Notes: generated by a model not told the origin, from the letters alone. DNA of 64,000 nt from Candidatus Micrarchaeota archaeon (GCA_016212505.1 JACRGB010000039.1:1590-65589), one strand, 5' to 3'. Positions 998-35,734 are shown, numbered from the stretch's first letter. Program-made: numbers and translations.

Positions 998-1095
998 AAA
1001 TATGAAATTGCAGATTGCGCCTTTAAAATCATTGCAAAGAAGACAAATTCCCACAACTAAACCATTTAAAATCTCTTCCTAACACTACCTATCAC

Positions 1096-2790
1096 ATGAG
1101 TGAACCTGGTAAAAAAACACCTCCTGGCCCTGCTGGCCGTCCTCTTACCAGTGCGGCAAAGCCAGCGGCAATAAGAGAAGCTGCAAGGCCTCCACTCCCT
1201 TCTGCCCCATATGCTGAAATTCAAGTTCTTGCCGAAGCTGCCAATGGTTCTCCAAGTGGTTCTTCTGCTCAACCTGTTCCTTCTCCAGCTTCTCCTCCTG
1301 TTTTGGCTGCAGGTGCAGGACCACATGACCACTCTCCCCGTGCATTTCAGAGAACTCCTTTTGTTTCAGGAGCTCAATTAGCCGCAATCCTGAGCGCTGA
1401 CCCATCAGTTTCAGTCCAAATTGTTGACTCGCAGCCTGTCCCACCTGACCCTTTAATCGGTCACGTATGCGAAGGGTATACCATAACTGGCATACTTGGA
1501 AGAGGAGGAATGGGAACGGTTTATCTTGGGGAAAATTCCTCCAATCCTACAACTCCTAAAATTGCAATCAAGGTTTATCAGCTTCCCCCGGAACTGGCTG
1601 CCATCCCCGCGGCGCTAAAAGAAGCAGAAGAGCGATTTTTACGCGAAGCGAGCGTTGCCCTCAAGCTTAGCCACCCAAATATTGTTCAAACATATGAAAT
1701 AATCAAGCTCGATGGCAGGCTAGGTTACACCATGGAGTATCTTCCTGGCGAAGATCTCGAAAGTTATTTAGAAAAAAACACCAAATTCCCTGTCGCTAAA
1801 GCAATCCGAATTGCCAAATCTGCAGCTAAAGCACTTGAAGCGATGCACCAGAAGAGCATAGTCCATAGGGATATAAAACCAAGCAATATTTTTTTGGTAT
1901 CAGGCACTGAAGAAGTAAAAGTTCTTGATTTGGGGTTGGCAAAACCTTTTGATAGGGCAATACCAACAAACCAAGCCCTCACCCGGCAAGGGACTGCTCT
2001 GGGTACCCCTGAATATATGTCCCCTGAAGCTGCAGTGGGTGCTGAAATTGACCAGCGGTCAGATGTCTATGCTTTGGGTGCTGTTCTTTACGTCCTTCTT
2101 TCGGGACGCTCGCCTTTCCGTGCTCCTAATGAGGATACTGTGACCTCAGCTGAATTATTGTCCCGTCATGTTAAATTAAAAGCAATCCCGCTAAATGATC
2201 TGGACCCAGCTATCCCAAAAAAGCTAAGTGATCTTGTCCAGCGCACATTGGAAAAACTACCACCCGCCCGGTTCCAGTCAATGGGTGAATTTCACGATGC
2301 ATTAACTGAATGTGAAAGAGCTCTCGGTTTAAGTGGCGATGAACCAATCTCAACACCTTCTGCAGAATCTACAGTTAACGCACCTAAAAGAAAATCTCCT
2401 TCCAGGTTGGTTGTTGGTTTAACCTTCGCTGGAGCATTGGCGACTATTGCAGGTTCATATTATGGTATCACTCACCTTGTGCGTTCCACAACTTCGCCTG
2501 CAGAAATAAACCTCCCGACCCCTTCAGTTGATCAGAATTCATTTCCGCTTTCCATAACCAATATTCAAGAAGGAACTGTTGTTGATTTAATCGATAGGGC
2601 TCCTGATGGAACCATTTTCAGAAGGAAACTGGGAGAATCTCCGCTTGTTAAGGTGGTGTTGTCTTCAGGAAAACACATAGTCCGCTTAAGTGCACCGGGC
2701 CGCATGCCAGTTTATTTGGACGTTTCTCGAGAAAATAGAGATTTTCAGAATCTTCCTCCACTCGAAGAACTCAAAATTTCAAATAAATAA
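1096..2790 (+). CDS. Hanks-type Ser/Thr protein kinase, membrane-anchored, with Pro/Ala-rich N-terminus and PEGA-like C-terminal domain
   Basis: Glycine loop GRGGMGTVYLG, catalytic loop HRDIKPSNIF, DLGLAK, and activation/P+1 segment GTPEYMSPE. One TM helix (LVVGLTFAGALATIAGSYYGI). The C-terminal segment GKHIVRLSAPGRMPVYLDV resembles a PEGA domain. Confidence 0.9.
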   Translation: MSEPGKKTPPGPAGRPLTSAAKPAAIREAARPPLPSAPYAEIQVLAEAANGSPSGSSAQPVPSPASPPVLAAGAGPHDHSPRAFQRTPFVSGAQLAAILSADPSVSVQIVDSQPVPPDPLIGHVCEGYTITGILGRGGMGTVYLGENSSNPTTPKIAIKVYQLPPELAAIPAALKEAEERFLREASVALKLSHPNIVQTYEIIKLDGRLGYTMEYLPGEDLESYLEKNTKFPVAKAIRIAKSAAKALEAMHQKSIVHRDIKPSNIFLVSGTEEVKVLDLGLAKPFDRAIPTNQALTRQGTALGTPEYMSPEAAVGAEIDQRSDVYALGAVLYVLLSGRSPFRAPNEDTVTSAELLSRHVKLKAIPLNDLDPAIPKKLSDLVQRTLEKLPPARFQSMGEFHDALTECERALGLSGDEPISTPSAESTVNAPKRKSPSRLVVGLTFAGALATIAGSYYGITHLVRSTTSPAEINLPTPSVDQNSFPLSITNIQEGTVVDLIDRAPDGTIFRRKLGESPLVKVVLSSGKHIVRLSAPGRMPVYLDVSRENRDFQNLPPLEELKISNK

Positions 2791-2831
2791 GTGTTTTAAT
2801 CTTTGCTTCCTAATACTTCGTTGGCGATTAT

Positions 2832-3194
2832 ATGGCACTTAAAGAAGAAGAAAAAATAACAAAAAAACCATTTGAAGATGCTAGTTTGGCAAAACCTGAT
2901 GTTCTTACTAAACCTTCGGCAGCTGCTCAGGCTGGAAAACCATATGCAGAAGTGCGCCCTAAAGCCGCCCGTGGGGAATCCACAACTACCTTAACCCTTT
3001 CTGGCGCCGCTTCCCAAAAAGGCAATGCTTATCCTGAAGTTACAACCATGCGTGGTGCAACTTCCCAGGCTGGAACTGCTGTGGAAGCTCCTGCCCCTAA
3101 GAGTGCAACCCCAGGAAAAGCTGAGCCCTACTCTGAAGTTACAACAATAGGTGAAAAATCAAAAACCAGAGAAAAAAAACCTCCCGGCGAATAA
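2832..3194 (+). CDS. small repeat protein with three P-Y-x-E-V motifs (hypothetical)
   Basis: 120-aa ORF 41 nt after the kinase. It has about 30-residue repeats centred on KPYAEV (Y38), NAYPEV (Y67) and EPYSEV (Y100). No TM helix, low complexity. Confidence 0.6.
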   Translation: MALKEEEKITKKPFEDASLAKPDVLTKPSAAAQAGKPYAEVRPKAARGESTTTLTLSGAASQKGNAYPEVTTMRGATSQAGTAVEAPAPKSATPGKAEPYSEVTTIGEKSKTREKKPPGE

Positions 3195-3261
3195 CTTCCG
3201 AAAAATACACAAAAAATGACCAGTCCCCACTATATTTATATTTTTTGGTTCTAATATCTTT

Positions 3262-4293
3262 GTGGCAAAAACAGAAAGTTCAAGATCCAGGTTGATTCTA
3301 AGGCGTCTACTCATAGGTGCAGCTGCATTAGTTGTTGGGGGTGCCGCAGCATTTGCTATTGATCAAATAAAAATCTCTGACCAAAAGCCTCCGATAGTTA
3401 AATCCGTAAAACCAGAAAAACGCAGGATCTGGTGTGATTTTGATCCCAAAGCTGATGGCATAATCGTTTCGGTCGAGAAGGCAACCAAAACCAAAGGGGC
3501 ATCGCTCACTGACTCTTACATTATCCCGTCCTCTTCTGTTTTTTCCGGAAGTAAACCGCTGGCCGCGCAATGCCATGAGGATGGGACCCTCTGGTGGCTA
3601 AATGATAAGCAGATCTACAGGCATACGATTACCCCTACCCCGAGCGGTTGTTGTGATGTCGAACTCAATCAGGCATTTCCACATACCTCTTCCTTTCCAG
3701 AATATGCGGCTCCTGGCGCCGGGGTTATTGCGGCTGCAATGTGGTGGCCAGCAAACCAGCCAAGCCCCTCGGTTGCTGAGGTTTCCAAAAACGGGCTTCT
3801 TCAAATATTTAAACCCCCGACCGATCAACCTGATATAGCAGAGCATTTCCTTTTGGAATTATCCGCTATTTTTAAAAACGAGGAAAGTTGGCCCCGCGAC
3901 CTTTCCCGGGTTGTTCTTGGTGTTACCGGCCATGATGGGTTTTCAATTATTCCGTTGGATCATCCTGCTCAAACTGCCGCTCAAAATGCAGATTCATCTT
4001 CGCCTTCTCCACCAAATAATATTGTTTTTAGGTATTACTTCCAATGGTCTGGTGGTTCATATTCTGGCGAGAAGCGAATCCGGCCGTGGGTTCTAAACCT
4101 TAGGGAACTTGAGCCTGACGCCAAGACAACTATAGCTGCTGAAGAAATTGTTTTCAATCCCATACGGGGCGGCTGGGTAACCAACCTGACTTTTTTAACT
4201 AATGATGGCAGGATAAGGCAAAGGGATGTCAATGTTGTTCCGCTTGACGTTTCAACAAAAGGCCAACCAAAAGACATGAGCAGTTCGGATTAG
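3262..4293 (+). CDS. hypothetical exported/anchored protein with twin-arginine-like signal
   Basis: GTG start. The N-terminus SRSRLILRRLLIGAAALVVGGAAAFA-ID has an RR plus hydrophobic core plus AxA pattern. The remainder matches no family I recognise. Confidence 0.55.
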   Translation: MAKTESSRSRLILRRLLIGAAALVVGGAAAFAIDQIKISDQKPPIVKSVKPEKRRIWCDFDPKADGIIVSVEKATKTKGASLTDSYIIPSSSVFSGSKPLAAQCHEDGTLWWLNDKQIYRHTITPTPSGCCDVELNQAFPHTSSFPEYAAPGAGVIAAAMWWPANQPSPSVAEVSKNGLLQIFKPPTDQPDIAEHFLLELSAIFKNEESWPRDLSRVVLGVTGHDGFSIIPLDHPAQTAAQNADSSSPSPPNNIVFRYYFQWSGGSYSGEKRIRPWVLNLRELEPDAKTTIAAEEIVFNPIRGGWVTNLTFLTNDGRIRQRDVNVVPLDVSTKGQPKDMSSSD

Positions 4294-4341: not shown

Positions 4342-4908
4342 ATGTTTATGGAAATAACGATTCTCCGCCTTGGCCACCGCCTTCCTCGCGATGAGCGAAT
4401 CTCAACCCATGTAGCTTTAGTTGCACGGGCGTTTGGTGCAAGTTCATTTGTTTATTCTGGCCAAATTGATCATGGGCTAGAGGAAAGCATCGAGCGGATT
4501 TGTGAAAGTTGGGGCGGATCAGTAAATGGTTCCCTGTTTTCTGTTTGCTATGAAAAAAATCCGCTTTCGGTAATTAAAAAATTCAAAAAGAGCGGATTTG
4601 TAATTCTTCATTTGACTATGTACGGAGTTTCTATAACAAGCGCGCTCGAAAAAATAAAAATTAGCAAGGAAAAAGAAAAACTATTAATCATTGTCGGCTC
4701 GGAAAAAGTCCCTGGCGAAGTCTATCAATTAGCAGATTACAATATTAGCATAACCAACCAACCGCACAGCGAAGTTGCAGCTTTGGCAATCGCGCTCGAC
4801 CGCATCCAGGAAGGGAAAGAACTTAGCGAAAAAGGGTTTGATTTTAAGGGTAAAATAAAAATTGTGCCAACTGAAAAAGGGAAGAAGATTGTTGAAAATC
4901 AATCGTAA
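4342..4908 (+). CDS. trm56: tRNA (cytidine56-2'-O)-methyltransferase aTrm56 (SPOUT)
   Basis: The N-terminus ITILRLGHRLPRDERISTHVALVARAFGA matches the conserved aTrm56 motif. Size is about 185 aa. Confidence 0.8.
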   Translation: MFMEITILRLGHRLPRDERISTHVALVARAFGASSFVYSGQIDHGLEESIERICESWGGSVNGSLFSVCYEKNPLSVIKKFKKSGFVILHLTMYGVSITSALEKIKISKEKEKLLIIVGSEKVPGEVYQLADYNISITNQPHSEVAALAIALDRIQEGKELSEKGFDFKGKIKIVPTEKGKKIVENQS

Positions 4909-5162
4909 ATATTTTCCCTATGTCCTATTTCAAGTATAACTATTACTTTTTCATTTTCAAAAGTTTCATAAGTTACCCTATAATTCCCCATTCGCATTCT
5001 ATATCTGTGATAAGTTCCTTCAAGTTTTTTATATTTACGAACGAAAGGGCCTTCTTTCAATTGCGCTAAAGCTTTTAGTAATTTTTCTAAATCCGTTCTA
5101 AGTTTTAATTTCTTCAGAAACTTCTCAGCATTATTGGATAATCTTATTTCCCAATCACTCAT
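4899..5162 (-). CDS. relE: RelE/ParE-family type II toxin
   Basis: 87 aa. The C-terminal pattern YRMRMGNYRVTYE....VIVILEIGHRENIY is typical of RelE/ParE. It overlaps the upstream small ORF by 8 nt. Confidence 0.8.
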   Translation of the reverse strand: MSDWEIRLSNNAEKFLKKLKLRTDLEKLLKALAQLKEGPFVRKYKKLEGTYHRYRMRMGNYRVTYETFENEKVIVILEIGHRENIYD

Positions 5163-5379
5163 GAAGCTTCACTTCTAATTCCTGTGCGAGTTTATCCAAG
5201 GGCTTATAATTTTTCTTACTTCTTGCACTTATCCTGTTTAGGTTTTCAACTTCTTTTTTAGAAATAGCCTCAAAACCAATAAAATTCTCTATTTTTTGGT
5301 CTACCCTTTGAACTGTTTTTTCTATTTTTTTTAATTCTTCATATAGCATATTTAAAGTTACATTTTCCATAATCTTCAC
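5155..5379 (-). CDS. putative antitoxin of the RelE-type module
   Basis: 74-aa helical ORF directly upstream of the toxin and overlapping it. The call rests on position; no motif was recognised. Confidence 0.55.
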   Translation of the reverse strand: MKIMENVTLNMLYEELKKIEKTVQRVDQKIENFIGFEAISKKEVENLNRISARSKKNYKPLDKLAQELEVKLHE

Positions 5380-5513: not shown

Positions 5514-8500
5514 GTGGATAAAATGGCTCTAATCAGAAGAAGGGATAAGGATGGGCAGGGGGCAGTAGGTGATCCCCTTTCTCACTCAACTCCCGTTCCA
5601 TCACCAAGATCTTCAAAATCAGCATTTTCAAGATGGTTTTCAAGTAGGGCTGTTGCGGCAGCAACTGCGATTGTACTTAGCATAACCAATATAAATGCAG
5701 GAATGCCTAATTTGGCATACGGTAAACCTCCTTCCGGAGGGAGTGCAGGAATTATGGCACCAGGTCCAACATTAGTTTCACAAACTGAAGCAGAACTACG
5801 GGCAAAAGCGCAAGAGGCAGTTTCTATTTTAGTTAGCTTTGTCTCTTCTGGTGGCAACGATTCACAGGGAAAATTTTACTCAAGATATTATGCGATATTC
5901 ACTGATCTTGTAACAAAATATAATATGGCAGATCCAATACAAAAAGTTGCATTTTATGATACTTTTAAACATGCATTTGAAAATAACTCTATTCTTTTTG
6001 ATTTTCAAAGCAGATACGCTGCAGATAAAGGACTTCTTGGAGCTGATCCGCTCCTTATCGGCACAATGCTTTTTGATTGTATCCGGATGATTGCACAAGG
6101 AAAAAGAGGGGACGCAGAAGCACAGTTTGGCCCTAATTTTGTTGCTAAAATCAACCAGATAATAGCGGTGCAGTCTTCACCAGTTCTGATTGATATACGT
6201 GCGAAAATGTCTTCTGGTCAACTAAGAGAAATAAACGAATTTTTCCAGAGAATGGGTCTTCCTGCATGTGCCCCTAAAGATAACGTCGCAATGATGCAAC
6301 TGGTGGATGCAACTACTTCGGCATTTGGTTTAACCGATCCAATTCAAGCAACCCAATTCCTAAATGCAGTTGTTTATGCTTATCTTTGGTTAAAAAGCGG
6401 GGAAAAACAAAGTTTTGAATACTGGGTCAGCCAATTAAAGGCCGATAGCAAAAAAGCACAGGAGCTTGCACAGAGGGCTCATTATGCATCAAAAGGTCCC
6501 GGCCAGCAATCATATGAAATTTTCTATTCGGAATATAAAAAATATTATGAAACCCCAGAAGCACAAATACCAAAAAAAGTTGATCAGTTTGAAGAATTAA
6601 AAAAACGCTATCCTCCTCATGTCCAAACTAGTGAGATGCATCTTGCCAAGCTGACAAAAATTTTTGAAACTTCACCTTCAGGTATGGTTTTGCAGGAAAT
6701 AGTAAATCGCTTCAATTTTGCCAGTGAAGCGGTTTTAGTTTTGGGGCAAGATCCATCAAGAAAGGCGGATCTTGCAAAATTTAAGGCAGAGCTTGATCCT
6801 CTTAGCAAATGGCTCGACAAATTTGACCTAAAAAAATTCATGGCAGAAGAGGCGCAGGCCCGAATGGAATTTCTTTCTGCACTTGGTATGGCAAAAATAG
6901 ACCCACGTATAGTATTTGAAGGGTATAAAACAAAACAGTTTGCAGCAATCGATGAATTAAATACACTTATTCAAAATAAGCGTTTTGCTGATGCAAGGGA
7001 AAAATTAACTGAAATTAAACAAGATCTCAATCCCCTTCGTGATATGCTGGCAAAAACCCCTGCAGCGCGCGAATGGGCAGATAAGATTGGCCAGCACCTT
7101 ACAGTTATAAAAACTTCCATTTCTTCTGCTTCGGTAACTAAAAAGGCAACAGATTCTCTATCAAGTTTAAGATCCAATTTCAATGAACTTTCTGCAAATG
7201 CGATAACAATTGTATTATTTGGTGAAAGTCAAAAACCAATATCAGAAAAACTTGCGGCATTTAAATCGTGCTTTATGAAAATCGATTCTGCTTATCTTCT
7301 TCTTGGAGATCCAAAACGATCGCAGATATTTTCATTATTCGGAGAATTAGAGGAAATAGCAGGCCAAAAACAACTTTACAACTTAGTCCTGGCTCATCTT
7401 TTTGCGCTTGATCAGGAAGTGGGCGAAATTTTCACCAACCTTGCAATTGCTGATCCTGATTTAATTGACAAGATGAAAAAACGCGTTGATAAGACTTTCT
7501 CTGCAGATCAAGTCCGAAAAGGCCAGGAAGCCTGGGCAAGAGATTATCATCAAATTGATGTAAGCCCGCTTCTTCTTGATAAAAACGTCCAGGATCTTCA
7601 TACGCGTGTTTCCAGTGCGGTCGCATCAGGAAAAGAATTCAAACCCGGTGATTTAACAACGGATGAAATCGTTATGCTGAAAAAAATGTATGGAGATTTA
7701 CCCCTTGAAGTCCAACTTAGACATTTCAACAATCATTTCAGGCCTCCATCAGAAGTTGACAATCAGCGATATGCAATTGCAGCCGCACTGCCTCCTATAA
7801 CTGCAGCCGCATTTTTCCAGTATGTAAAGACAGTTCAGGAAAATCATGTGGGTTCAGAATATGAGCGAAGGTCTGTTCGCGATACCATAATTTTCCTTAA
7901 TTCGGTAAATCCCATTCTTGTACCAAAATACCTTGCTGCAATAAAAGCAGTGGCAGAATCCTGTGCAAATGCCCCAGACACATATTCGCAGTCGCTCGAT
8001 ATGATACATGCTGGTACAAGAACGGTAGCAGGCCTTGCAGATCCCCTAAACCCAATAAACAGAGGCGCACTAATTGATGTTCGCAGAGTTATTGATGAAC
8101 TTGGTGATGCATTTAATTATATAAGAAGATCAGTTGCTTCAGGAAACCTAATCTATGACCGGCTTGACCTTTTGGATAGGACAATTTATCTTCTTCCGCA
8201 AGAGCCGCATTATATTCTTCATAAGCCATGGGCACTTAAGCCGCCTTTGATAGCCCCAGGTTATGGAGTTCCAGGCGGGTTTTATCCAAGCCCTTTCCCA
8301 AGACTGCTTACTCTTCCGGCACCAATTATTCCAGTAACTTCAGGAAGGGCTAACCTAAGTCCAGGCACAATCTATACTCCTGAAAGCGCAGCAATTGTTC
8401 CAACTACAATTATTCCTTCTTTATATATTAACACTTTTGCAGCTTCAACAGTTGCTAATGCAAGAAGTTGGTTTTATCCGACTCATACTCCAGTAACTAT

Positions 8501-11282
8501 CTCAACTGCTTTCCCAGGTTCAACCATCTGGTTCCCAAGTTTAACTAAATTCGGACTCATAATTCAGGATGCCTTCAGGCCAAAGAGGCCCCTGGAATAC
8601 AGTGCAAAGCCAATTGGCGGCGGCGGGCAATTTGGTTATGCCTGGGGCGATAATATTCCTACTATAGTAGGAGGAGTGGGAAGCTGGGTCACTACTACTG
8701 GTGGTGTTGCTGCTGCACTAAATGCAAGTTCAGAAACAGGTTTTGGAGGGTTAGGCATAGCCGGCCAGCCATTAGGAAGCAAAGGGGGAATAAGAAGTGC
8801 TTCCATAGGCGCTGAAGTAACCCCATCGCAGGCAAATGCGATTGCAAAAACTCTTTTCAGCCAATATGACCCAAAAAATCCAAAAAACATTGCATTCTCT
8901 GCTACTGCAGAAGCTGATCGCCTTCCAGGCGGAACAAAATCCACAGTTACTGGTGTATTTTCTTATACCGATCGTGATATTTATCTAAGGGTTTCCGGAG
9001 GCCATAGCGATTATTATGCTGATCTTAATTCTTTTGTATCTTTCCTCCTTACTGGAAAATATTCTACTGATGAAACTAAAGCAAAAGTTCCATTAACTGC
9101 TGCAGCAAATGTTGAAAATGTTTTGACAGAATCAGAAAAAAGCGGCGGTTCTGCACTGGCAGTAGATCTTGGAAGAACTTCTGTTCTATTGCATTTCCAG
9201 GAACTTTCATCACTTTATCTTTCTGGCTATGCAGCTGGTGGTGCCCAGGGCCAGGCTGCTATGGCGCCAACACAATATTTATGGACTGGTGCATTTGCCC
9301 CAACAGTAAGGGAGGTTGGCAAGACATCGGTTTATGAATTTAAATTCCCCGGGGAGTTGCTACGGTTTGATCGTGGCATGGGTACGGGCACTGGCGCAGG
9401 CCAGAGCGATGATTATTTCATACAGGATGGAGTGTTCACATTAATGCGCAGAAAAACCGATGGCGGAATAACAAGATTGTCCGAGTTTACCATTGGTGCC
9501 GGAGGCGGGTTCTACACCACACTTCCTCCTACTGTTCCTGGCATGCCTCCTCCTACTGAAAGTGTTACGCATGGTGCTGGACGCGGGGGGATACACTACA
9601 AACAAGAAACGATCTGGTCGGATAGGACACATACCAATTGGGGCCTTGGTGCTTCAGTGGAAGCAGGACCTGCAGATGCCCAGGCACTGCAATTTGCCCA
9701 GGCAGCATTCCAAAGAACTTATCTTCAAAACCTCTATAAGATCGGAGTTTATGGCTATGGGAGTAAGAGAGCAAACGAGCTTGTCTATGGTGCTTTGCTC
9801 AGCCTGATCCCACAATTCACTGTGGATCCCCAGAGTGGTGCGAGCTTCGATGCAATGAAATGGCTCTTTATTGGATTTATTGCAGGCGCAAGGGACATTT
9901 ATGGCGAAGATGTTTTCAAAAGAACCCAGGGCGCGCGAGTGGAAATTCAGCGCTACCAGGCAATTGATGTAATTGCAGATAATTTCAATGGTTTAATGTC
10001 TACTTATGGCAACAATCCCCAGCAGATACAGGCATTTATACAAAATTTCAAAAATTATTATGGCGTTATCGACCAGTTCTTTGACCGCTATGCTCTTGCT
10101 GTTAGTGTTTCGGAGAATTTTTCTCTTGATTTTAATATGGTTGCAAGGGAAGTTCCGGTTTCAGGAAAAGGCGGGGATTGGTATAAGCAGGTGCCTGATA
10201 ATGTGAGCGGAAGAGCACTTCTAACATTTAATCGTGGTTTTGCGCGTGCCCAGGCTTTCTTCCCACTTTTTCCGGCCAATCCTCAATTAGGTGGAATGGC
10301 TGGTGCGGTAGGTGCTGATCTTGGGCTTGATTTATTCAATGGGCCGGCATTTAACCGCATGATTGTTGGTGCTGCAGCTATTTTGTCACGCGATCAACTG
10401 GGCGAGCAGTGGAAATACAAAGCAACATTGCTTCAGGGCGGAATAGTTCTTTACAATAATCTGGTTGAAAATTATTCGAGCTACAAATCACTTGTGGCAA
10501 AATATGACCGTGCTGCGCAATATCTTGATAGCCCAAATAAGAAGATCCGGGGATACATAGGAAAAATTGATCCGGAATTAAGGGCCCAGCTTGCTTCTGG
10601 AGCAAATCCATTAATAAAATCCCAAAAAGTACGGGATCTTCTACTTGCTGCAGATGAAAGAACAATAAATCTTGATGAATCAACCTTGCGTGAAATTGGA
10701 GTTGCCTTAGGCCAACTATTTGAGCGGGAAAAATTCGCAATACAGGAAAAATTCAACAAAAGCGTTAAGGAAAATCTTGAAATTTATACTGCTGCCCGTG
10801 TCCTTATAGACGGGGATAAAATGTGGGATGTTGGAATATTTGCACAATATGTTGACCGGATGAAATTATACTTAATTGGAGGGATGCGCGATCAGCCCCA
10901 GTTCTTTGGCGGTTTTGATATCAAGCTGGTTAAGCGCGATAATATAGAATTTAATCTTGGTGCAATCCAGGGTGTAAGAGGAAAAGCAGGAGGCGGGCCA
11001 CCAGACGCTGGCTTTGGAGCTCATTTCCAGCTTAAGTTCCCACAAAGGACTGCTGGCGGCAGGCCAGGGGTTTCGGTTCACTTTGCAGGAGGATATTCAA
11101 CACAAGATAGTCCGACCTATTCAGATATTCTTATGCAAACTTACCAATATGGCGGCTTTGCAGGAGGCTGGGGCTTTATCACTTTATCTATAGGTGATGT
11201 TTATCGCGGTGCAACTCCAATGTTTATCAATCCAGGTCCTACTCCTTACAGCCCAACTCAGGCAAATCCCTACCAGAGATAG
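5514..11282 (+). CDS. giant orphan secreted/anchored protein (1922 aa)
   Basis: Uninterrupted 5.8 kb ORF (GTG 5514 or ATG 5523). Charged N-region followed by the hydrophobic segment AVAAATAIVLSI..AYG. The N-terminal half looks helical, a Pro-rich linker lies near 8221-8560, and the C-terminal half is Gly/aromatic-rich. Confidence 0.8.
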   Translation: MDKMALIRRRDKDGQGAVGDPLSHSTPVPSPRSSKSAFSRWFSSRAVAAATAIVLSITNINAGMPNLAYGKPPSGGSAGIMAPGPTLVSQTEAELRAKAQEAVSILVSFVSSGGNDSQGKFYSRYYAIFTDLVTKYNMADPIQKVAFYDTFKHAFENNSILFDFQSRYAADKGLLGADPLLIGTMLFDCIRMIAQGKRGDAEAQFGPNFVAKINQIIAVQSSPVLIDIRAKMSSGQLREINEFFQRMGLPACAPKDNVAMMQLVDATTSAFGLTDPIQATQFLNAVVYAYLWLKSGEKQSFEYWVSQLKADSKKAQELAQRAHYASKGPGQQSYEIFYSEYKKYYETPEAQIPKKVDQFEELKKRYPPHVQTSEMHLAKLTKIFETSPSGMVLQEIVNRFNFASEAVLVLGQDPSRKADLAKFKAELDPLSKWLDKFDLKKFMAEEAQARMEFLSALGMAKIDPRIVFEGYKTKQFAAIDELNTLIQNKRFADAREKLTEIKQDLNPLRDMLAKTPAAREWADKIGQHLTVIKTSISSASVTKKATDSLSSLRSNFNELSANAITIVLFGESQKPISEKLAAFKSCFMKIDSAYLLLGDPKRSQIFSLFGELEEIAGQKQLYNLVLAHLFALDQEVGEIFTNLAIADPDLIDKMKKRVDKTFSADQVRKGQEAWARDYHQIDVSPLLLDKNVQDLHTRVSSAVASGKEFKPGDLTTDEIVMLKKMYGDLPLEVQLRHFNNHFRPPSEVDNQRYAIAAALPPITAAAFFQYVKTVQENHVGSEYERRSVRDTIIFLNSVNPILVPKYLAAIKAVAESCANAPDTYSQSLDMIHAGTRTVAGLADPLNPINRGALIDVRRVIDELGDAFNYIRRSVASGNLIYDRLDLLDRTIYLLPQEPHYILHKPWALKPPLIAPGYGVPGGFYPSPFPRLLTLPAPIIPVTSGRANLSPGTIYTPESAAIVPTTIIPSLYINTFAASTVANARSWFYPTHTPVTISTAFPGSTIWFPSLTKFGLIIQDAFRPKRPLEYSAKPIGGGGQFGYAWGDNIPTIVGGVGSWVTTTGGVAAALNASSETGFGGLGIAGQPLGSKGGIRSASIGAEVTPSQANAIAKTLFSQYDPKNPKNIAFSATAEADRLPGGTKSTVTGVFSYTDRDIYLRVSGGHSDYYADLNSFVSFLLTGKYSTDETKAKVPLTAAANVENVLTESEKSGGSALAVDLGRTSVLLHFQELSSLYLSGYAAGGAQGQAAMAPTQYLWTGAFAPTVREVGKTSVYEFKFPGELLRFDRGMGTGTGAGQSDDYFIQDGVFTLMRRKTDGGITRLSEFTIGAGGGFYTTLPPTVPGMPPPTESVTHGAGRGGIHYKQETIWSDRTHTNWGLGASVEAGPADAQALQFAQAAFQRTYLQNLYKIGVYGYGSKRANELVYGALLSLIPQFTVDPQSGASFDAMKWLFIGFIAGARDIYGEDVFKRTQGARVEIQRYQAIDVIADNFNGLMSTYGNNPQQIQAFIQNFKNYYGVIDQFFDRYALAVSVSENFSLDFNMVAREVPVSGKGGDWYKQVPDNVSGRALLTFNRGFARAQAFFPLFPANPQLGGMAGAVGADLGLDLFNGPAFNRMIVGAAAILSRDQLGEQWKYKATLLQGGIVLYNNLVENYSSYKSLVAKYDRAAQYLDSPNKKIRGYIGKIDPELRAQLASGANPLIKSQKVRDLLLAADERTINLDESTLREIGVALGQLFEREKFAIQEKFNKSVKENLEIYTAARVLIDGDKMWDVGIFAQYVDRMKLYLIGGMRDQPQFFGGFDIKLVKRDNIEFNLGAIQGVRGKAGGGPPDAGFGAHFQLKFPQRTAGGRPGVSVHFAGGYSTQDSPTYSDILMQTYQYGGFAGGWGFITLSIGDVYRGATPMFINPGPTPYSPTQANPYQR

Positions 11283-11770: not shown

Positions 11771-13012
11771 TTAGCGCCTTAAAGGCGCAGCCTTTTCCTT
11801 ATTTTTCTCAACAAAATTTGTCCATTCGATTATCAATGCAGATGAATCACGCATTCCTTCTGGAATATTTATTCCCTGGGTTTTTAGAAATGTACTGACA
11901 ACTCCTATTGCCAGTTTTCTTTTTTGTTCATCCATCGGAGCGCTGATCATCATAAGAATAGACCCAGTTCCCTGAGTAACTTTTCCGAACAGATCATTCT
12001 TTACAATTGAACTGAAATATAGTTTTTCAAAAGCACTATCCACAACTTTTTTCTCTGCCTTATCTAATAATGCTTCGACTTCTTTTGCTTTTCCAGCATT
12101 TACGTTTTGGATAATCAATTCTTCTGTAACTTTTGGTTGAGCAACCGCCGGAGCAGCTGCTGGCGCCACTACTCTTGCTGGAGGAGCGGCACTGTCAGTT
12201 TCTTGTCGCGGAGCAGCCGCCTCAACTTTCGGTTCCCATCTCTTTATCCTTTGGTCTTCCTTCCCTTCTGCGTTAAATCGCCTTGCATAAAGTGCAGTCC
12301 CGATCACTGCCCTGCTAATTTCGCCAAAAGACCTAATCGCGTACAGTTCATCCCCAAATGCAGATGATCCATTTTGTGCAAAATATTCATTTAGCCCCTT
12401 GACCAGTGCATCCAAATTTTCTGTACTTACTTTACTTCCTTTTGCTGCTCCCCCCAGAAATAATGCTAGTCGCATATATGCGCCGCTGGTTTGTCCATCA
12501 ACGTATTGTTTGAACTTGTTTCCCTTCTCCGATGATACAAATTCTATGAGTGCTTGGGCGGTTTCATTTTTAGGCATTTTTTCAATATCATCTGCCCGCT
12601 GATAAAGAGCATCGATTTCTCCCTTTTCTATTCTTTTGGTGAGCCATTTTAGGTCTATTTTTTCTAATTTGGCCACTTTTACCCAGGCAAGTTCGCCTTC
12701 CCTTCTTGCAGGAGTTGCATGTATTGTTTCAGAAGGTTCTTTTTCCCCTCCTTCGATTCCGAGTTTTGCTTTGATCAGAAGAATGGCGCGATTTATTTCA
12801 GCATCCTCCCGTTTGAGTTTGCGTATTTCGGCTTTTGATTTCTCATCCCCTCCATCACCAGCGTCCCGGTATGCACTATTTAATGCTTTTATTATTTTTT
12901 CTCTTATTGCTGAATCATCATCTGTTGCATTTACTTTAATTTTAGTTGGAAAATTCTGCGCTGTACAGTTTACCGTAAGGACTCCACTTTTGTCTGCAAC
13001 TATTCCTGTCAT
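11771..13012 (-). CDS. hypothetical protein (413 aa) translationally coupled to the 2700-aa gene
   Basis: Its ATG overlaps the stop of the upstream giant gene (ATGA at 13009-13012). It has the Pro/Ala linker AAPPARVVAPAAAPAVAQP. No recognised domain. Confidence 0.7.
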   Translation of the reverse strand: MTGIVADKSGVLTVNCTAQNFPTKIKVNATDDDSAIREKIIKALNSAYRDAGDGGDEKSKAEIRKLKREDAEINRAILLIKAKLGIEGGEKEPSETIHATPARREGELAWVKVAKLEKIDLKWLTKRIEKGEIDALYQRADDIEKMPKNETAQALIEFVSSEKGNKFKQYVDGQTSGAYMRLALFLGGAAKGSKVSTENLDALVKGLNEYFAQNGSSAFGDELYAIRSFGEISRAVIGTALYARRFNAEGKEDQRIKRWEPKVEAAAPRQETDSAAPPARVVAPAAAPAVAQPKVTEELIIQNVNAGKAKEVEALLDKAEKKVVDSAFEKLYFSSIVKNDLFGKVTQGTGSILMMISAPMDEQKRKLAIGVVSTFLKTQGINIPEGMRDSSALIIEWTNFVEKNKEKAAPLRR

Positions 13013-16000
13013 TTTTTCACCGCGTCTCGTCTTAAATTGTCACCCTTTGTTTTTAGTGCTGACTCGCTCGGTTCAAGGCCATCAATTTTTGCATCTTCTC
13101 CGTGGCCTTCTTTTATATGAATGCCATACCTATCATAAAGCTCTTTCGGGTCCGGATGTTTCAGCACTATTTCGAAGTATATGAGTTTCCTTGCGGTTTT
13201 TCTCTGCTCTCCTTCATCTGCACCAAGGCTATTTTTAAAAGGGGCTTTGGCAAGCAAATTTTCTATACGGAGTCTAACTTTAGAAGATATGTTCTTTTTA
13301 AAAAACGCATCCGCTTCAACCTGTTTCTGCTCCTCGCTTTTGCCGAATGTCGGGGCTGGCGTTGGCGCTTGGGCGGGCGCTGCGCCTTGTGCTGAAGTGC
13401 CTGTTGGCAAGGGCGCAGTAAGAAGCGCTTTTACATGTGCTACCCGGTCGGTTTTCTCCTCCGGAATAGTAAGCTCCAGTTCCAATCCTCCGCCTTCAGT
13501 TGCTTTAACCCTTATTCCAATATCTTTGAGCACTTGCGGGGTATTGTCCTGCTCGCCCTTTTGCGCAGTTTTTGGCACATGGTATTGTCCTGCTCCGCGT
13601 GCTGCGGCTGCATGCCTATATATTGTATCATATATCTGTTGTTCTACTATCCCCGGCGCGATGCTTCCCGCTTTCTCCTTCAGCACCTCTCTTAGCTTAG
13701 TATCTGTTCCGATTGCCTTTAGCAGCCATCCATTTTCTGAAAGTCCGCTATTAAAGTATTCCCTTATGCGCGGGGTTATTGCCGCCCCCTTACTGACTTC
13801 ATAAAGCCCTAAAGAGTCACCTGCCCTTGAAATGGCAAGGCCACCCGGCAATATGTATGTCGGGTTTAATGGGGCCAGCCGGAGCTGCACTGCTTGCGGG
13901 GCGCTTGGTTTTGGTGCTTTAACTTTGAGCTGCTCAATGGAATCAAATATGCGCTTTACCTCTTTTTCAACATTTCCTCTTCCCCAGGTTTCTGTGCCGC
14001 TCCCAAGCAGTTTTAGCAATGCCAAAACCAGTTTTCCAGGGGCATCAAACTTGTCTTTTTCCGCAATTATCGCCTTAACCAGCCCTTGCCCGAACCTTGG
14101 ATCATTTGCCAAAGCCACAAGTTCCGGATGATCAAGCATTTTCGGATCAAGCTCTGCAAGTAAGCTTGGTCCCACCAATCCTTTGGCCTTTGCCTTTTCC
14201 ATTGCTTTGGCAGAATCACTTCCTATTATCTCCGAAGCAAGGTCTCTTGGATTGCCATATACCATTTGTGCATTATTTGGGTCAGCCCCAAGGGCAAAGC
14301 CATCAAGCCCGTTAAGTTTTGCCCAGTTCGCAACTTTTAATTTATAATTTTCCATGAGCCTTGCCGTGTCTGCTTCTGAAACCTTATACTCATCAACAAG
14401 CGCTTTGAACGCGGCCCTAAATTCAGGGTGCTGCGTTGCCCGATTATCCATAGCTGCAAGGAATGAATATGTGTTTGTTGAAGCAAGAGGATTTTCAAGA
14501 TAAAGGCCCGCAACTTCCAGCTGTTTTCTGATTCCATCCGCTGTTTCTGCTGGAGTTGATTTTCTTAGGTTTGCAACAGCATCAGCCATATATGACTGAG
14601 GTATATGGCCTCCAAGCACTCCTTCAGCATATAATATCCTGAATAGCTGTGGGTGGGTGCGTAAGAACTTTATATCTTCTTCCTGCTGCGATCCTACTAC
14701 CGGAACCTTGCCTTGCATTTGCACTATCCCTGTGGAAATACAGAATTTCAGCACCATGCCGTCGTATCCCCTCAAAAGGGCTTGCCTTGCAACCATCTGG
14801 TTGCTGAATGCTGAGAAGTACTTGAGGTCTTCTAAGTCAAATTTCGAATCTGGATTCAGCTTCCGTTTCTGGTTAATGTATTCTGTTAAGGCAGCAGTCA
14901 TAGGATACCCTTTCACCTGCCCATTCATGAGCGGATCTTGCAAATACCCTCTGTAAAATTTTTGTGCAAGCGTTCCACGGACAGTCTGGACATCCAAAGT
15001 TGGTATCTCTCCCTGCGCTCTTATCACTGCCAGTAATGACCCTCTGTCAAATGTCCTGCCGCTTACATCAGCATAATTCAAACCGAATATGCCTAATGTT
15101 TCCTTTACATATCCTTCTGCTTCTGGTTTTGGTAAATTAGCGTACCTGTTTAGTTTTTCCAAATCAATATACGCAATCTGCTGCTCAAGGATAGCACCCA
15201 AATAAGGGAAATCCTTCTGGAGTTTTGCAAATGCATCATCTGATCTTTTTACTGCATCATGAAGTTCTTTTGCCAGTTTTTCAATTTTTGATCCTGATTC
15301 CGGATGTCCGGCCTCTTTCCCTTTTTCTTTCCTCTCTGTTTCTTCCCTGGCTGCTGCTAAAGCTCCTCTTTTTTCTGTTTCTGCCTTTCTGGCTGCATTT
15401 AATTCTTCGATATCATCTTTTACTTCTACAAACCGGACTTCCCTTAGCATAACTGCCTCTGCTTTTCGGTGTGCCGTAGCAAGCAGGACATCATCTTTTG
15501 TTATACTTGCGGCTGTTAGGTCTTTTGTGAAACCAGCCTCAACTTCAGCTTTTTTCTCAGCTTTTACGGCCGGTCCTTGCAACTCCGCAAACTTATCGTT
15601 TATTCCCAATATTTTTCCCGCACCTGTTGCTGCTAAAAATGCCGGCCGCGGATCTATTACATAAATATTTGTATCTCCTATCTGCAAATCAAGCTTACCT
15701 TTATCACTTGGCTGCAACGTCTCCCTTTTGAGAGGTTCTGTAGGCAACATCCAAACATATTTTTCACCTTCTCCCCTATTTGGAAGAGGAATCCGGTAAC
15801 TTCCGAACCTATCGCTAATGCCCCCTTTTTCTTCAAGACCCCATGCTTCTGCCATTTTTTCTTTCCTTTCATACTCTGGGTCCAACCCAAAATGATAAGC
15901 TGGCCAAGCCAAACTCATTGCTGCTGGCAGGAAATATGCATAGGGCCATCCTCCTCCCCTGAAAAATGCCCTTCCCCTGCTCGGGCTTGCTTTAAAGCCC

Positions 16001-19000
16001 CTCCATCCAGCATACCCAATAGCCGCAGGTACTCCTACTGCTGCAATTCCTCCGAGCCCTATGGTGTATAAACCAACACCTAGGGTCGCTACTCCAGCGG
16101 CACCTAGTCCTACTTTTGTTACCCTTTTCCAGGTTAGTTTTCTTGTATAACCCGGCGCAGTTGGGCCAGTGCCACTCGGGCCTTCTGTTGCAGACTTAAG
16201 ATGGCTTGCAGCATTAAATTCTACTGAAAATTGTGCATTTATTTTTATCTGGTTGGACAGCCTTCTTGTATAATCTACAAATCCATTTGCTTCCCCTACC
16301 ACTTCGGACGGGTTCGGGCCGCTGGCTTTTCCGGCCTCATTGATTTTGTTTCCAATCCGCTCGATCTTGGATGGATCTACTACTTGGCCTTTGCCATCAG
16401 CACCAGCTGCTTTATCTCCTGCCGCCAAGCGCAAAGCTTCGCTATGGACCTCATCGAGCAATCTCCCGATGTCCCTTATTGCTCCGCCCCTTTCGCTGTC
16501 TATGAATGAACGTGTTCCCCCTTCGATCACGTTAGTTATTGCTGTTTTATATCTGGCCTTTGCATCTGCAGTTACATCTACCCCATCAACCAGGGCATTT
16601 AATCTTGCTCCAATTATTGCATTTGCTGCCCGATTCGGTTCTCCAAGTGCTTTTGCACAATCTGCTGCTACTGTTCCTTCTCCAACCAATGCCTTAAGTG
16701 CAGTTCTTGCAGGTTTGCCATCTTCGCCAACTTTTACCTTTCCTTCTATGTCTTTTCCTAAGGCTTCACTGCCAAGATACTCGCTAACCGCCCCATTAAA
16801 GCCTCCAGCGCCAATATTTCCGCTGTCTGCTTTTTGCCTAAGGTCGGCAAATAAGTTATCCGGCCTTTGGCCAGTTTCTACCGCCCGTGAGTTATTCAGC
16901 CTGGCTATCTCTCTGGAGTAATGGTCGATAATCGCCCTTCTTTCATTTCCAACCGTCTCACCCGCCTCACCAACGGCCGGAGCGCCCCTTAGTACGGCGG
17001 CATCATTAGGATCCATTCGCGGGAGCATTTGGGCAAGGAGTTCAGGGTTCCGTTCCATTAATGCTTTCACTTGTTCTTCAGTTAGGGGTTTTGCCTGGTA
17101 TTCCTGAGTAACTTCCCTAGGGTTAACTCCTCTTGCGCGGGCTTCATCTTTAATTGTTTTTTCTGCTAATTCCTTGGCTTGAGCAGGAAGGTCTACCCCG
17201 ATCTCTCCTGATTTTGCATAAAGCGCTGCAAGGGTCTCTCCCTCTGCCCTTGTGCTCATGCTTCTCCTTAAATTGCCTACAGCATCATCGTATCTTTGTG
17301 CGATTTCCGCTGGTTTTAGCGCGCCTGCCTTGCCTAACTGCCCATCTACTGCTGCCCTCTCTTCAACCGTAATTGTTTTGAATACGTCTCCGACAAGAGA
17401 CGGCCTGGCTTCTAACAATGCCTTAACCTGGCCTTCGCTTAATGTTTTTGCCCTATACTCATCCTCAATTGCCTTTGCTTCGACTGCCCTGCCTGCACGC
17501 GCTGATCTTTGCTTTGCCGCAGCATTTATTATGTCCCGTGCTTCTCTTGCAGCGTCTAATCCGAAGCCAGCTTTACTTTTTGCATAAAGTGTTGCAAGTA
17601 TTTCCCTGTAGCTGGATGGATCTTTCTCCTGAGGGTCAGTTGCCCTTCTTGCCAATTCTTGCGTTAATTTTTCAAACTCTTGTGGGTTAGCCCTGCGCAT
17701 CTCTTCAAGCGAAGCTACGCATTCTCCCTTATGTTCTTTGAGGAATTTATCTGCAATTTCTTTTGTGGGATCTATTGTTTGTTCTCTTGCTCTGGCTGCC
17801 GCTATTTCAGCTTCTGTTTTTCCAGCTTCAGCAGGCTCTGCGCCTTTAGGTCCCTTACCTTCAGGAATCGAAGCTACTTGTTTTACTTCTGGAGGTGCGG
17901 CGGTACTGTCTTTCATGAACCATCCGCCAACGGTTTTCAATGTCCCTCCAACTGCTCTACCCACTCGTCCTGCCCGTGTTCCTTGCGCTCCAACTTGTTC
18001 TGGGGGTACTTCGCCAGTTCTTGTCGGAATTATCTGGCCCCTAAGGTCTGTAAATTGTCCTTCTGGTGTAGTTCCGCCACCCGCTGCTGCCCGTGCAGCT
18101 TGTTCTGCAGGCTCGTCCACAATTCGTACTTTGCCTCGCAAATCCTTAAGATCATTTTCAAATCTTCTTCCTAAGAAACTATTAGCATCCAATCCTTGTT
18201 CTGAACCTAATGCATCCATTAGTTGTTTATTGTTTGCCCAGATTTCCATTCTTCTTCGCATTTCCGGAACCATTTCTTCCAGACGCCCTTGCGCGGCTTT
18301 TTGTGCATCCGCTCCTTTTCTTCCTGATAATGCGCTAAGATAATCCTGCAAAGTAGCTGTATCATTAAGGATTGCGCCTTTTGTTGGTGCCTCATATGCC
18401 CTTACTTCGGGTTTAACAATTCCAAGGTTCGCCATCTGCTCTTCAAGCAAGCTTGCCCTTACTGCCCGCATTCTCCAGTATCTTGAAATGCGGTTTGCAA
18501 TTGAATGCGCTACGCCCACTCCCGCCATCCCATACTGCAGATATGCCTCCCTTCTAAGTGAATCTGCCTCGTTGATTAATTCCCTCCTCCTCACTTCATC
18601 CACCTCTCCTTCTGCTTTAGCATAAAGTTCATTTGAATTTGCCTGTAGTTCGAGTGCATCCCCAGTCATTTTTAAGGTATATAACCATCCCATTCCTTTT
18701 GCAATTTGCTCTGCTGATACTGTCACATTTTCTGCTGCTTTTAAGGCCTTAAGTGCACCTGCTGTTGCACCTGCCCCAACTAGTGCAGCTGTTATAGCAA
18801 CATTGGCCCACGTTTCATTGCTTACTTTTCCAGTGGCCTCATATTCAGTTACCACATCATCGGTAGTTGTTCCTATTATCAATGCGCCAGATATCCAGGG
18901 GCCAACTACTGGGATGAAACCGCTTCCTATAGTTGCAGCTATTAAAGCCACTTTGCCTGCGAACTTTGCCTTTTCTGCCTCTTTTTCCATCTGCTGGAGT

Positions 19001-21594: not shown

Positions 21595-22032
21595 TTATTT
21601 TGCCCCTTGTTGTGTAAAAACAATTCTTTTTGCAGCACTTAAGAACTTTTTTGCATCTTTTATCGCTTCAACTGCACTAGACTCTGAACATAATGATCCT
21701 TCGTATTGTATCATATGCCTTGTTTCACGATAATTTTGTGATATCTCACCTAACCTGGAAAGTTCGCTGTCTGCTTTGAACTCCACCCTGACAAATTCGA
21801 ATAGGCAAAAATGGCTTCGTTCCTTATAGTTTCTACTATAAAGAAGCGCCCGTGCAGAATGAAAGATGCTTATGTAAGAAGTAAGAAAGGATATGTCATA
21901 TACGTCCTTATCCATTATTTTCTCTGCTTTTTTTATGTACTCCTGCGCTATTTTTATTTGGTTTTCTGTCTCTTCCTTTACGACCGGGATTTTTCTTAGC
22001 AACCCCCTTTCAATGCAATTACGGTAACTCAT
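21595..22032 (-). CDS. HEPN domain protein (toxin of HEPN/MNT pair)
   Basis: Helical protein with the pattern ...YISIFHSARALLYSRNYKERSH.. typical of HEPN. The ATG at 22032 overlaps the MNT stop (ATGA). The ORF track starts it at an upstream GTG (22047). Confidence 0.75.
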   Translation of the reverse strand: MSYRNCIERGLLRKIPVVKEETENQIKIAQEYIKKAEKIMDKDVYDISFLTSYISIFHSARALLYSRNYKERSHFCLFEFVRVEFKADSELSRLGEISQNYRETRHMIQYEGSLCSESSAVEAIKDAKKFLSAAKRIVFTQQGAK

Positions 22033-22589
22033 ATAGGATTCCCCCACACCCTCACATTATTTTTCATTATGGAAATGAAAAAATTATCCTTTTTTCTTTC
22101 TAATTCTCTCCATCTTGGAAAACTTATAGTTGTTACATTCGCAGCTCTTCCAAGTTTTAACTCTATTCTTGAAAAGTCATGCGTATCAGGCTTTTTTTCA
22201 TCACCCGTTAAGATTAGGATGTCTATGTCACTGCTATCTCCGTAGTCTCCTGATGCAAAACTACCGTATAAGGAAATAGAAAGAATATTTTTATTCTTTT
22301 TAAGAAATGGTTTTAGGTATTCCCCATCTGCCAAAATATATGGCCCAATAAATTTTTTGAGCGTTTTTATTCTTGAATCCTCATCATTTAAGGAGAATTG
22401 ATGAACGTTTCCAATTTCTTTCTTAATGAGGATGCCCTCATCAGCGTATTTCGTGCAAAAGCGATGTGCGGTCTGTAAACCTATCTTAAGTTTTTTTGCC
22501 AGTTCATTTACATGAATGTTCGTATTGGGGTAGAGGAGAAAATACTCCAGGACCGTCCATCCCCTGAACTTGTTAAATTCCTCAATCAT
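22029..22589 (-). CDS. minimal nucleotidyltransferase (MNT) with N-terminal winged-helix
   Basis: NTase motif LYGSFASGDYGDSSDIDILIL. The start was chosen at ATG 22589, which has ttttatatag about 30 nt upstream. The ORF track extends to 22688. Confidence 0.8.
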   Translation of the reverse strand: MIEEFNKFRGWTVLEYFLLYPNTNIHVNELAKKLKIGLQTAHRFCTKYADEGILIKKEIGNVHQFSLNDEDSRIKTLKKFIGPYILADGEYLKPFLKKNKNILSISLYGSFASGDYGDSSDIDILILTGDEKKPDTHDFSRIELKLGRAANVTTISFPRWRELERKKDNFFISIMKNNVRVWGNPI

Positions 22590-22724
22590 ACCATATATGG
22601 TACGTTCATACTCTATATAAAATGATCGTTTTATTAATAATATGATAATTTTTATTGTATTGGAATTTGCAAATTCCAATGCGGACAAATTTTTGCGAAA
22701 ATTTGTCCTTGAGTAATGAAAAGC

Positions 22725-35646: not shown

Positions 35647-35734
35647 AAATCTAATCACCGTGACTTTCAAATGAATTTTTCTAATCACTTTAATCCGATA
35701 ATCTTTATATATGTTCATTCCATTTTCTTTTCCA

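Follow-up and report, generated by a model that had tools for sequence, protein, structure and literature searches.

Introduction

What joins a receptor-type protein kinase of an archaeon to the small protein encoded directly behind it, if the two are alike in five residues and nowhere else? The question is raised by a 64,000-nt stretch of a Candidatus Micrarchaeota metagenome-assembled genome (MAG) from the DPANN archaea, obtained from groundwater (GCA_016212505.1 JACRGB010000039.1:1590-65589; locus tags HY988_), analysed here over its whole length and called the window. Its gene content is archaeal, with aTrm56, fibrillarin, eIF6, RFC, L31e, prefoldin and a KaiC-like ATPase. The kinase open reading frame (ORF) occupies 1096-2790 on the plus strand and encodes 564 aa; after a gap of 41 nt (2791-2831), a small ORF of 120 aa follows on the same strand at 2832-3194. 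An earlier note on this DNA had proposed that both products carry a short motif, P-Y-x-E-[VI], and that the small protein is a docking or substrate partner of the kinase. The features on which it drew (SAPYAEIQV, GKPYAEVRP, HRDIKPSN, the 41-nt gap and the 120-aa length) are all found at this locus. We report that the motif recurs beyond chance expectation, and we tentatively favour a reading in which the small protein serves the kinase next to it as a disordered substrate or adaptor with multiple sites, specific to this lineage.

Results

A five-residue motif recurs in two adjacent genes

The kinase carries its copy of the motif in the N-terminal tail, at 1207..1221 (+), as P38-Y39-A40-E41-I42 within SAPYAEIQV. 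Three copies lie in the small protein, on the same strand: P37-Y38-A39-E40-V41 in GKPYAEVRP (2940..2954), A66-Y67-P-E-V-T71-T72 in GNAYPEVTTMRG (3027..3047) and P99-Y100-S-E-V-T104-T105 in AEPYSEVTTIGE (3126..3146), the second and third with a threonine pair directly after the motif. Peptides of 12 residues that bear the motif read GKPYAEVRPKAA, NAYPEVTTMRGA and SAPYAEIQVLAE. The motif accounts for all three tyrosines of the small protein and for the sole tyrosine of the 125-aa kinase tail, and its first copy is equally far from the N-terminus in both proteins (Y39 in the kinase, Y38 in the small protein). The degenerate copy that the earlier note had added, KKPFEDA (F14), is present, but as a fourth repeat it is without statistical support.

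When the small protein was shuffled 20,000 times, Y-x-E-[VI] never occurred in more than one copy (mean 0.019), and an analytic estimate puts the probability of three copies at ~3e-7; the three are not independent of one another, since internal duplication made them. One copy in the shuffled 125-aa tail has a P of ~0.0007-0.003, and V had been widened to [VI] to take in this kinase copy. The 53 plausible ORFs of the window, with 18,599 aa between them, contain [PA]Y.E[VI] four times, always in the kinase or the small protein. A control set of 1.0 Mb from 111 unrelated loci, read in six frames, holds 19 occurrences, never two within 2 kb on one strand, and gives a background of ~1e-5 per residue. 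Multiplied by the lengths of the neighbouring proteins, this rate yields a look-elsewhere P of ~0.005-0.013 for a neighbour that also matches. The enrichment anticipated from the sequence thus stands up to the 20,000 shuffles, the window ORFs and the 1.0-Mb controls: the motif cluster exceeds chance, and the kinase copy does so moderately. Among 52 homologues of the kinase, none has the motif.

Outside the motif, the tail and the small protein show no similarity (P=0.64; 383/1000 shuffles), and extended protein homology between them is ruled out, the likeness being limited to the five motif residues. Similarity of this kind is consistent with what is expected of a linear motif in fast-evolving disorder, and in both proteins the motif-bearing segments are predicted disordered stretches on the cytoplasmic side.

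The small protein is a repeat-built orphan

The small protein is rich in Ala, Lys, Thr, Glu and Pro and is made up of three units of about 30 residues, which align with one another at P ~0.01-0.02. The internal duplication is visible in the DNA at 3017..3153 (+), where two 38-nt copies (3017-3054 and 3116-3153) are 71% identical and lie 99 nt, or 33 codons, apart. A codon-by-codon comparison of repeats 2 and 3 finds two synonymous changes in the core Y-x-E-V-T-T and a further one at x; in the flanks, all of the differences, five in number, are replacements. Small as these numbers are, the pattern is consistent with purifying selection on the core.

A second element also recurs once per repeat, E-[VS]-T-T, seen as E49-STTT, E69-VTT and E102-VTT. 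In repeat 1 it forms the threonine cluster E49-S-T-T-T53 (2976..2990, +); in repeats 2 and 3 it is E-V-T-T at 3036-3047 and 3135-3146 (+). Three copies were reached in none of 50,000 shuffles (0/50,000), the P for at least two is 8e-5, and the rest of the window proteome holds one further copy. Its presence in every repeat would strengthen the idea of a multi-site substrate, with phosphorylation predicted at these threonines.

By codon usage the small ORF looks like a real gene whose expression is predicted: under a codon model trained on the confident genes of the window, which themselves score 0.07-0.42, it reaches +0.218 bits per codon in its own frame, and the five other frames all score negative (-0.07 to -0.87). 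By the Uversky criterion the protein classes as disordered. An AlphaFold2 (AF2) model built from the single sequence has a predicted template modelling score (pTM) of 0.20 and gives a beta-hairpin at residues 100-115 alone, so that no folded repeat structure emerges beyond this one hairpin. The hairpin (nt 3129-3176; YSEVTTI-GE-KSKTREK) lies over motif copy 3, with a predicted local distance difference test (pLDDT) value of ~90 for residues 101-110. Because the hairpin is predicted over the third motif, the motif may be bound by beta-strand addition.

Neither a signal peptide nor a transmembrane segment is apparent in the small protein, and it has no FHA domain. Scans against Pfam, NCBIfam and PADLOC returned no match, and those against Pfam and NCBIfam no domain even at E up to 10. 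Its only match was to itself in a word-indexed search of 5.8e9 proteins, in an exhaustive phmmer search of 1.84e9 representatives and in a tblastn search of JGI metagenome contigs. The conservation and synteny by which the earlier note had proposed to check its reading were not seen: the small protein has no homologue in these searches, the kinase has no orthologue, and the pair is absent from the nearest genomes. Missing orthologues are not the same as loss of the motif, and they neither confirm nor refute a function.

The kinase is intact and of bacterial type

Residues 128-394 of the kinase match the Pfam family Pkinase (PF00069) at 5.7e-47; the score of 160.8 bits lies above the cut-off of 31.7. 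The catalytic domain (1477..2277, +) includes GRGGMG, K159, E184, HRDIKPSN (257-264), DLG (278-280) and GTPEYMSPE. Catalytic residues H257-R258-D259-K261-N264, D278-L279-G280 (a DLG variant) and P310-E311 are kept, and they are invariant or nearly so across 53 aligned kinases. The closest solved structures are Stk1, PknB, PknA and StkP. By its sequence this is an intact, PknB-like Ser/Thr receptor kinase of the Hanks type, and both its catalytic loop (HRDIKPSN) and its P+1 loop (GTPEYMSPE) are of the Ser/Thr type.

An AF2 model built with 53 sequences gives the kinase domain a pLDDT above 90, residues 1-89 a pLDDT below 50 and a short helix at 92-100. The Pro/Ala/Ser-rich cytoplasmic tail (residues 1-90; 1096..1365, +) is predicted to be disordered, as is the juxtamembrane linker, which has low pLDDT. 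A helix at residues 443-461 (2422..2478, +; hydrophobic stretch LVVGLTFAGALATIAGSYYGI) crosses the membrane in the model. The C-terminus, extracellular and ~100 aa long, is beta-rich and poorly defined. Since AF2 lays the protein out as kinase domain, linker, transmembrane helix and C-terminus, the model describes a single-pass receptor whose N-terminal tail, with Y39, is cytoplasmic and disordered. A weak PEGA-like stretch lies in the C-terminus (2623..2718, +); against PEGA (PF08308) the ectodomain scores E=0.012 and 15.9 bits, under the cut-off of 20.8, and its AF2 strands are of low confidence. PASTA repeats were not found in the Pfam scan, and the PASTA kinase model NF033483 (PknB_PASTA_kin) scores 227.3 bits over the kinase domain only, below its threshold of 450.

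In the disordered linker, A-E-S-T-V at residues 423-427 (2362..2376, +) echoes G-E-S-T-T of the small protein. It is a possible autophosphorylation site by analogy, because the juxtamembrane regions of StkP and PrkC are phosphorylated (PMC12077195; bioRxiv 10.1101/2025.11.01.686061).

The best relatives of the kinase are bacterial, from Myxococcota, Planctomycetota and Gemmatimonadota, with 33-43% identity over the kinase domain only; in two homologues (P0007 and P0008) a transmembrane helix and PEGA (PF08308) follow the kinase, an arrangement that the archaeal protein would match if its weak PEGA-like stretch is counted. The other in-frame starts are a TTG at codon 70 and an ATG at codon 139, which already falls within the kinase domain. 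A later start that would leave the motif outside the protein was considered and rejected: only the TTG at codon 70 would be possible, and it is without promoter-like sequence, whereas the ATG at 1096 has a TATA-like box.

Upstream elements and DNA echoes

The TATA-like box ATTTAAAA lies at 1064..1071 (+), 25-32 nt upstream of the kinase ATG, and several confident genes of the window have the same layout. This suggests a leaderless kinase transcript that starts at or near 1096. Upstream of the small ORF, at a distance of 32-38 nt, is a TATA-like TTTTAAT (2794..2800, +). It is possibly the promoter of this gene itself; co-transcription with the kinase is also possible.

A 12-mer is found before both starts, as CTTCCTAACACT at 1075..1086 (+), 10-21 nt upstream of the kinase, and as CTTCCTAATACT at 2806..2817 (+), 15-26 nt upstream of the small ORF. 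These are the two matches to CTTCCTAAYACT in the 64 kb. The count of two is not significant, as 14/100 shuffles reach it. The 12-mer could be a promoter or leader element common to both genes, or what is left of a duplication.

The earlier note had also drawn attention to echoes between the two genes in the DNA. The identities are there, 12/15 for ccatatgctgaaatt versus ccatatgcagaagtg and 13/15 for cctgaagttacaacc versus tctgaagttacaaca, but they are explained by shared preferred codons, since the kinase 5' region and the small ORF give no significant DNA alignment and no similarity extends beyond the five residues. A recent DNA duplication of the kinase 5' region is ruled out, the best local alignment being off register and matched by shuffles.

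The pair belongs to a lineage-specific block

A third gene on the plus strand, orf343 (3262-4293; 343 aa; GTG start), follows the small ORF and has its own TATA-like box ~20-30 nt upstream. Its coding score is positive, its only protein match was to itself, and it has no Pfam match. The N-terminus is Arg-rich and signal- or anchor-like (RRLLIGAAALVVGGAAAFA, SRSRLILRRLLIGAAALVVGGAAAFA). It resembles a twin-arginine or Sec signal, or a membrane anchor, and the protein is probably extracytoplasmic. That the small ORF was split off from the N-terminus of orf343 is ruled out by the difference in frame and by two intervening stops.

The block of three genes (1096-4293) is flanked by trm56 and a gene for PGM/PMM (GlmM-like). 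Both neighbours are also present in the two closest Micrarchaeota MAGs, with 63-64% identity for Trm56 and 66% for the PGM/PMM protein, and there they lie adjacent and divergent with no block between them (L001 7622-9531 and L002 7005-8910). Since PGM/PMM abuts trm56 in these closest genomes, the kinase, the small ORF and orf343 form, on this comparison, a lineage-specific block, inserted here or lost in the others.

The GC content of the block is 46-47%, with the excess in codon positions 1 and 2, where it goes with Ala/Pro/Gly-rich proteins. GC at third codon positions (GC3) is 0.25-0.40, like that of the host. The high GC of the block is thereby ruled out as evidence of recent horizontal transfer, and any acquisition was not recent. 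An older acquisition is suggested by the bacterial relatives of the kinase, together with the lack of the block in related genomes.

Among the ~50 ORFs scanned in the window there is no gene with an FHA, PP2C, PTP, SH2 or PTB domain.

Other genes of the window

Directly after trm56, at 4899-5379 (-), are two overlapping genes, one for a ParE-like toxin of 87 aa (Pfam 3e-11) and one for a putative antitoxin of 74 aa. Two giant ORFs come next, of 1922 aa at 5514-11282 (+) and 2700 aa at 11771-21111 (-), the latter followed by an overlapping ORF of 413 aa. Neither giant ORF matches Pfam or PADLOC, and both probably code for DPANN surface proteins; at 31 trm56 loci no relative of the 1922-aa protein was seen. 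At 21595-22688 (-), a HEPN-domain gene overlaps a nucleotidyltransferase gene in a module like the MNT-HEPN type of toxin-antitoxin system. Further on, a KaiC-like ORF (34960-35907, -) and an RFC small-subunit ORF (35711-36700, +) overlap by ~200 nt at their 5' ends, and because of this overlap at least one of the two probably starts further downstream than listed.

Discussion

The motif is confined to two adjacent genes on the same strand, 41 nt apart, which also share an upstream 12-mer, and these features of the sequence argue for a link between their products. We propose that the small protein would have arisen by internal duplication of a unit of ~30 residues, with two short elements kept in each unit, [PA]-Y-x-E-V and E-[VS]-T-T. 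The motif P-Y-x-E-[VI] would be a short linear recognition element by which the kinase docks on its partner. The Glu-preceded threonine pairs would be the phospho-acceptors, much like ETTS of GarA/OdhI. The copy in the kinase tail could act in cis, either in autoregulation by competition with the partner or as a site linked to autophosphorylation. Because the catalytic and P+1 loops of the kinase are of the Ser/Thr type, the threonine pairs are the likelier acceptors, and the earlier note was right to be cautious about the tyrosine. Such a pair would be expected to be co-expressed, and phosphorylation of the small protein would feed into some downstream output. Taken together, the recurrence of the motif, the predicted disorder and a real-looking gene speak for the partner reading of the earlier note, whereas conservation of the pair does not. 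We therefore hold this reading tentatively.

Several observations weigh on the other side. The kinase match is a single hit of five residues with I for V, and the look-elsewhere P of ~0.005-0.013 is the figure to attach to it. The small protein is a strict orphan, so no conservation of the motif or of the pair can be read from relatives, and its expression is a prediction from the sequence. The kinase itself has no orthologue among its matches, which reach at most 43% identity and in no case include the N-terminal tail, and none of the three genes of the block is present at 31 archaeal trm56 loci. AF2 places the tail motif nowhere confidently on the kinase domain (pLDDT ~33). The 64-kb window holds no gene for an FHA, PP2C or PTP protein. 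Finally, the threonine pair appears only loosely coupled to the motif, since two of the four motif copies, those of the kinase and of repeat 1, have no TT directly after them.

How much of this could be coincidence? The copies in the small protein might be an incompletely decayed duplication in a young, lineage-specific gene that came about de novo or through repeat expansion, and the match in the kinase tail might be due to chance. That the small protein is a strict orphan, that its repeats are visibly related in DNA and that its similarity to the tail is nil outside the motif all fit such an origin; further, the kinase copy fits the motif only once V is relaxed to [VI], and the motif was picked from 64 kb scanned for anything odd. 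A background of ~1e-5 per residue makes a neighbouring hit improbable, however, and this hit lies as far from the N-terminus as its counterpart in the small protein, within the sole disordered segment on the cytoplasmic side. The contrast between core and flank changes in repeats 2 and 3 suggests selection, and third-position GC and codon usage are host-like, so the small gene is not brand new. On balance we consider coincidence somewhat less likely than the partner reading, and a strong competitor to it. Common descent would account for the match differently: the small gene would be a duplicate of the kinase 5' end (the promoter and the first ~45 codons) that was later expanded, and the motif would be a ligand for some third party, or a relic. 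The 12-mer, found 10-26 nt upstream of both starts and nowhere else in the window, the first motif at residue 38/39 in both proteins, and the Lys- and Pro-rich character of both N-termini can be read in this way. No significant colinear similarity of DNA or protein extends beyond the motif, though, the count of the 12-mer is not significant (14/100 shuffles) and the window has no candidate reader domain, and we regard such an origin as improbable. It is also conceivable that the small ORF is not a gene at all and is instead an untranslated spacer that is open by chance. It is short and of low complexity, with no homologue and no clear Shine-Dalgarno sequence. Its in-frame coding score nevertheless equals that of confident genes, a frame of 120 codons in DNA of 41% GC exactly fills the space between two genes of the same strand, a TATA-like box lies upstream and the divergence of the core repeats is biased to synonymous and x positions. 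With these points in view, we would give the spacer only a slender chance.

Two further explanations keep the pair together and change its chemistry or its purpose. The kinase might be dual-specific and phosphorylate the motif tyrosine in both the tail and the small protein, creating pY-x-E-[VI] sites for some reader. Tyr and Glu are the only strictly invariant side chains of the motif, and all four tyrosines of the disordered segments lie in it. Dual-specific Hanks kinases exist in bacteria, PrkD and PrkG being examples (cited in PMC6213207), and phosphoproteomes of Sulfolobus are rich in phosphotyrosine without classical Tyr kinases (PMC5007285). The HRDIKPSN and GTPEYMSPE loops are of the Ser/Thr type, however, the closest structures are Ser/Thr kinases, there is no SH2, PTB or PTP in the window, and the likeness to SH2 ligands is a formal one. 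Tyrosine as the acceptor strikes us as very unlikely. A role in antiviral defence is harder still to sustain. The kinase would then be of the PD-T4-6 or Stk2-like kind, set among toxin-antitoxin genes, with the small protein as a decoy or sensor. PADLOC models for PD-T4-6 do match the kinase at 5.8e-76, and the ParE-like toxin pair (4899-5379) and the HEPN/nucleotidyltransferase pair (21595-22688) are in the window. But the PADLOC match covers the generic kinase domain only, the NCBIfam models MAD6 and PglW score far under their cut-offs, and neither the small protein nor orf343 matches a defence model; moreover, a single-pass receptor with an ectodomain suits a sensor of the envelope or surface and not an intracellular phage sensor. 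We rate a defence function as highly unlikely.

If the small protein is a disordered partner of the kinase, as we tentatively hold, the pair would most resemble PknB and PknG with GarA, or StkP-type kinases with disordered substrates. In Actinobacteria, GarA (OdhI) has a Glu-preceded threonine pair (ETTS) in its unstructured N-terminus that is phosphorylated by PknB and PknG (PMC5448819). The kinase described here is PknB-like, and E-V-T-T and E-S-T-T stand in a small disordered protein. GarA, however, reads the phosphosite with a folded FHA domain, which also binds enzymes, whereas the small protein is a domain-less orphan with three sites and a tyrosine motif in addition. Like StkP and PrkC, the kinase is a single-pass protein with a kinase domain, a disordered juxtamembrane linker, a transmembrane helix and an ectodomain. 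Kinases of the StkP type have disordered membrane substrates such as MapZ, and the disordered regions of Hanks receptor kinases are themselves phosphorylated and functionally important (PMC12077195; bioRxiv 10.1101/2025.11.01.686061). StkP and PrkC differ in having no motif-bearing N-terminal tail of 125 aa, and the kinase here is without PASTA repeats, has a weak PEGA-like ectodomain and belongs to an archaeal host. The PEGA kinases of Myxococcota and Planctomycetota are 33-43% identical in the kinase domain, and in some of them a transmembrane helix and PEGA come after it, as would be the case here with the weak PEGA-like stretch. They have neither the N-terminal tail nor the motif, many occur in tandem and they are GC-rich, whereas the gene studied here has a host-like GC3.

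The earlier note had also seen a resemblance to the EPIYA motifs of bacterial effectors. As in those effectors and in the pYEEI ligands of Src-SH2, short tyrosine motifs are repeated in a disordered protein, and Y-x-E-[VI] formally fits the pY-E-E-I spacing of Src-SH2 ligands. The resemblance to EPIYA fails on the consensus ([PA]-Y-x-E-V versus E-P-I-Y-A), on the secretion signal, which the small protein does not have, and on the type of kinase; no Tyr kinase or SH2 reader is in evidence. Among archaea, the nearest parallel is the set of Ser/Thr kinases ArnC and ArnD of Sulfolobus with their specific partners ArnA and ArnB (PMC5007285, PMC5300886, PMC12852372). ArnA and ArnB differ in being folded FHA and vWA proteins that are conserved in Sulfolobales, whereas the candidate partner here is a domain-less orphan and the kinase is bacterial-type. 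The statement that no such pair was known in archaea was overstated, as ArnC with ArnA/ArnB already is one (PMC5007285, PMC12852372). Since archaeal Hanks kinase-substrate pairs are known, the pair described here would be at most a variant of known signalling.

In a broader context, the locus is of interest whichever way the link falls. Should the link not be real, what is left is a lineage-specific kinase with two orphan neighbours, and such kinase/orphan neighbourhoods are common in DPANN genomes. Linear motifs are well studied in eukaryotes and hardly in prokaryotes, and to our knowledge they have not been studied in DPANN archaea. It is tempting to speculate further that the pair is a private DPANN module built on an acquired bacterial-type kinase, with a partner that originated on the spot, de novo or as a duplicate of the kinase's 5' tail, and then grew by duplication of its repeats, around a motif found nowhere else in sequence databases and possibly phosphorylated on tyrosine. 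We think this bolder version improbable; if true, it would catch in the act the origin of a kinase-substrate pair together with its linear motif. If the link itself is real, a Hanks-type receptor kinase of a genome-reduced, symbiotic archaeon would use a domain-less, repeat-built orphan through a linear motif, and the locus would offer a compact, testable case of the birth of a substrate beside its kinase.

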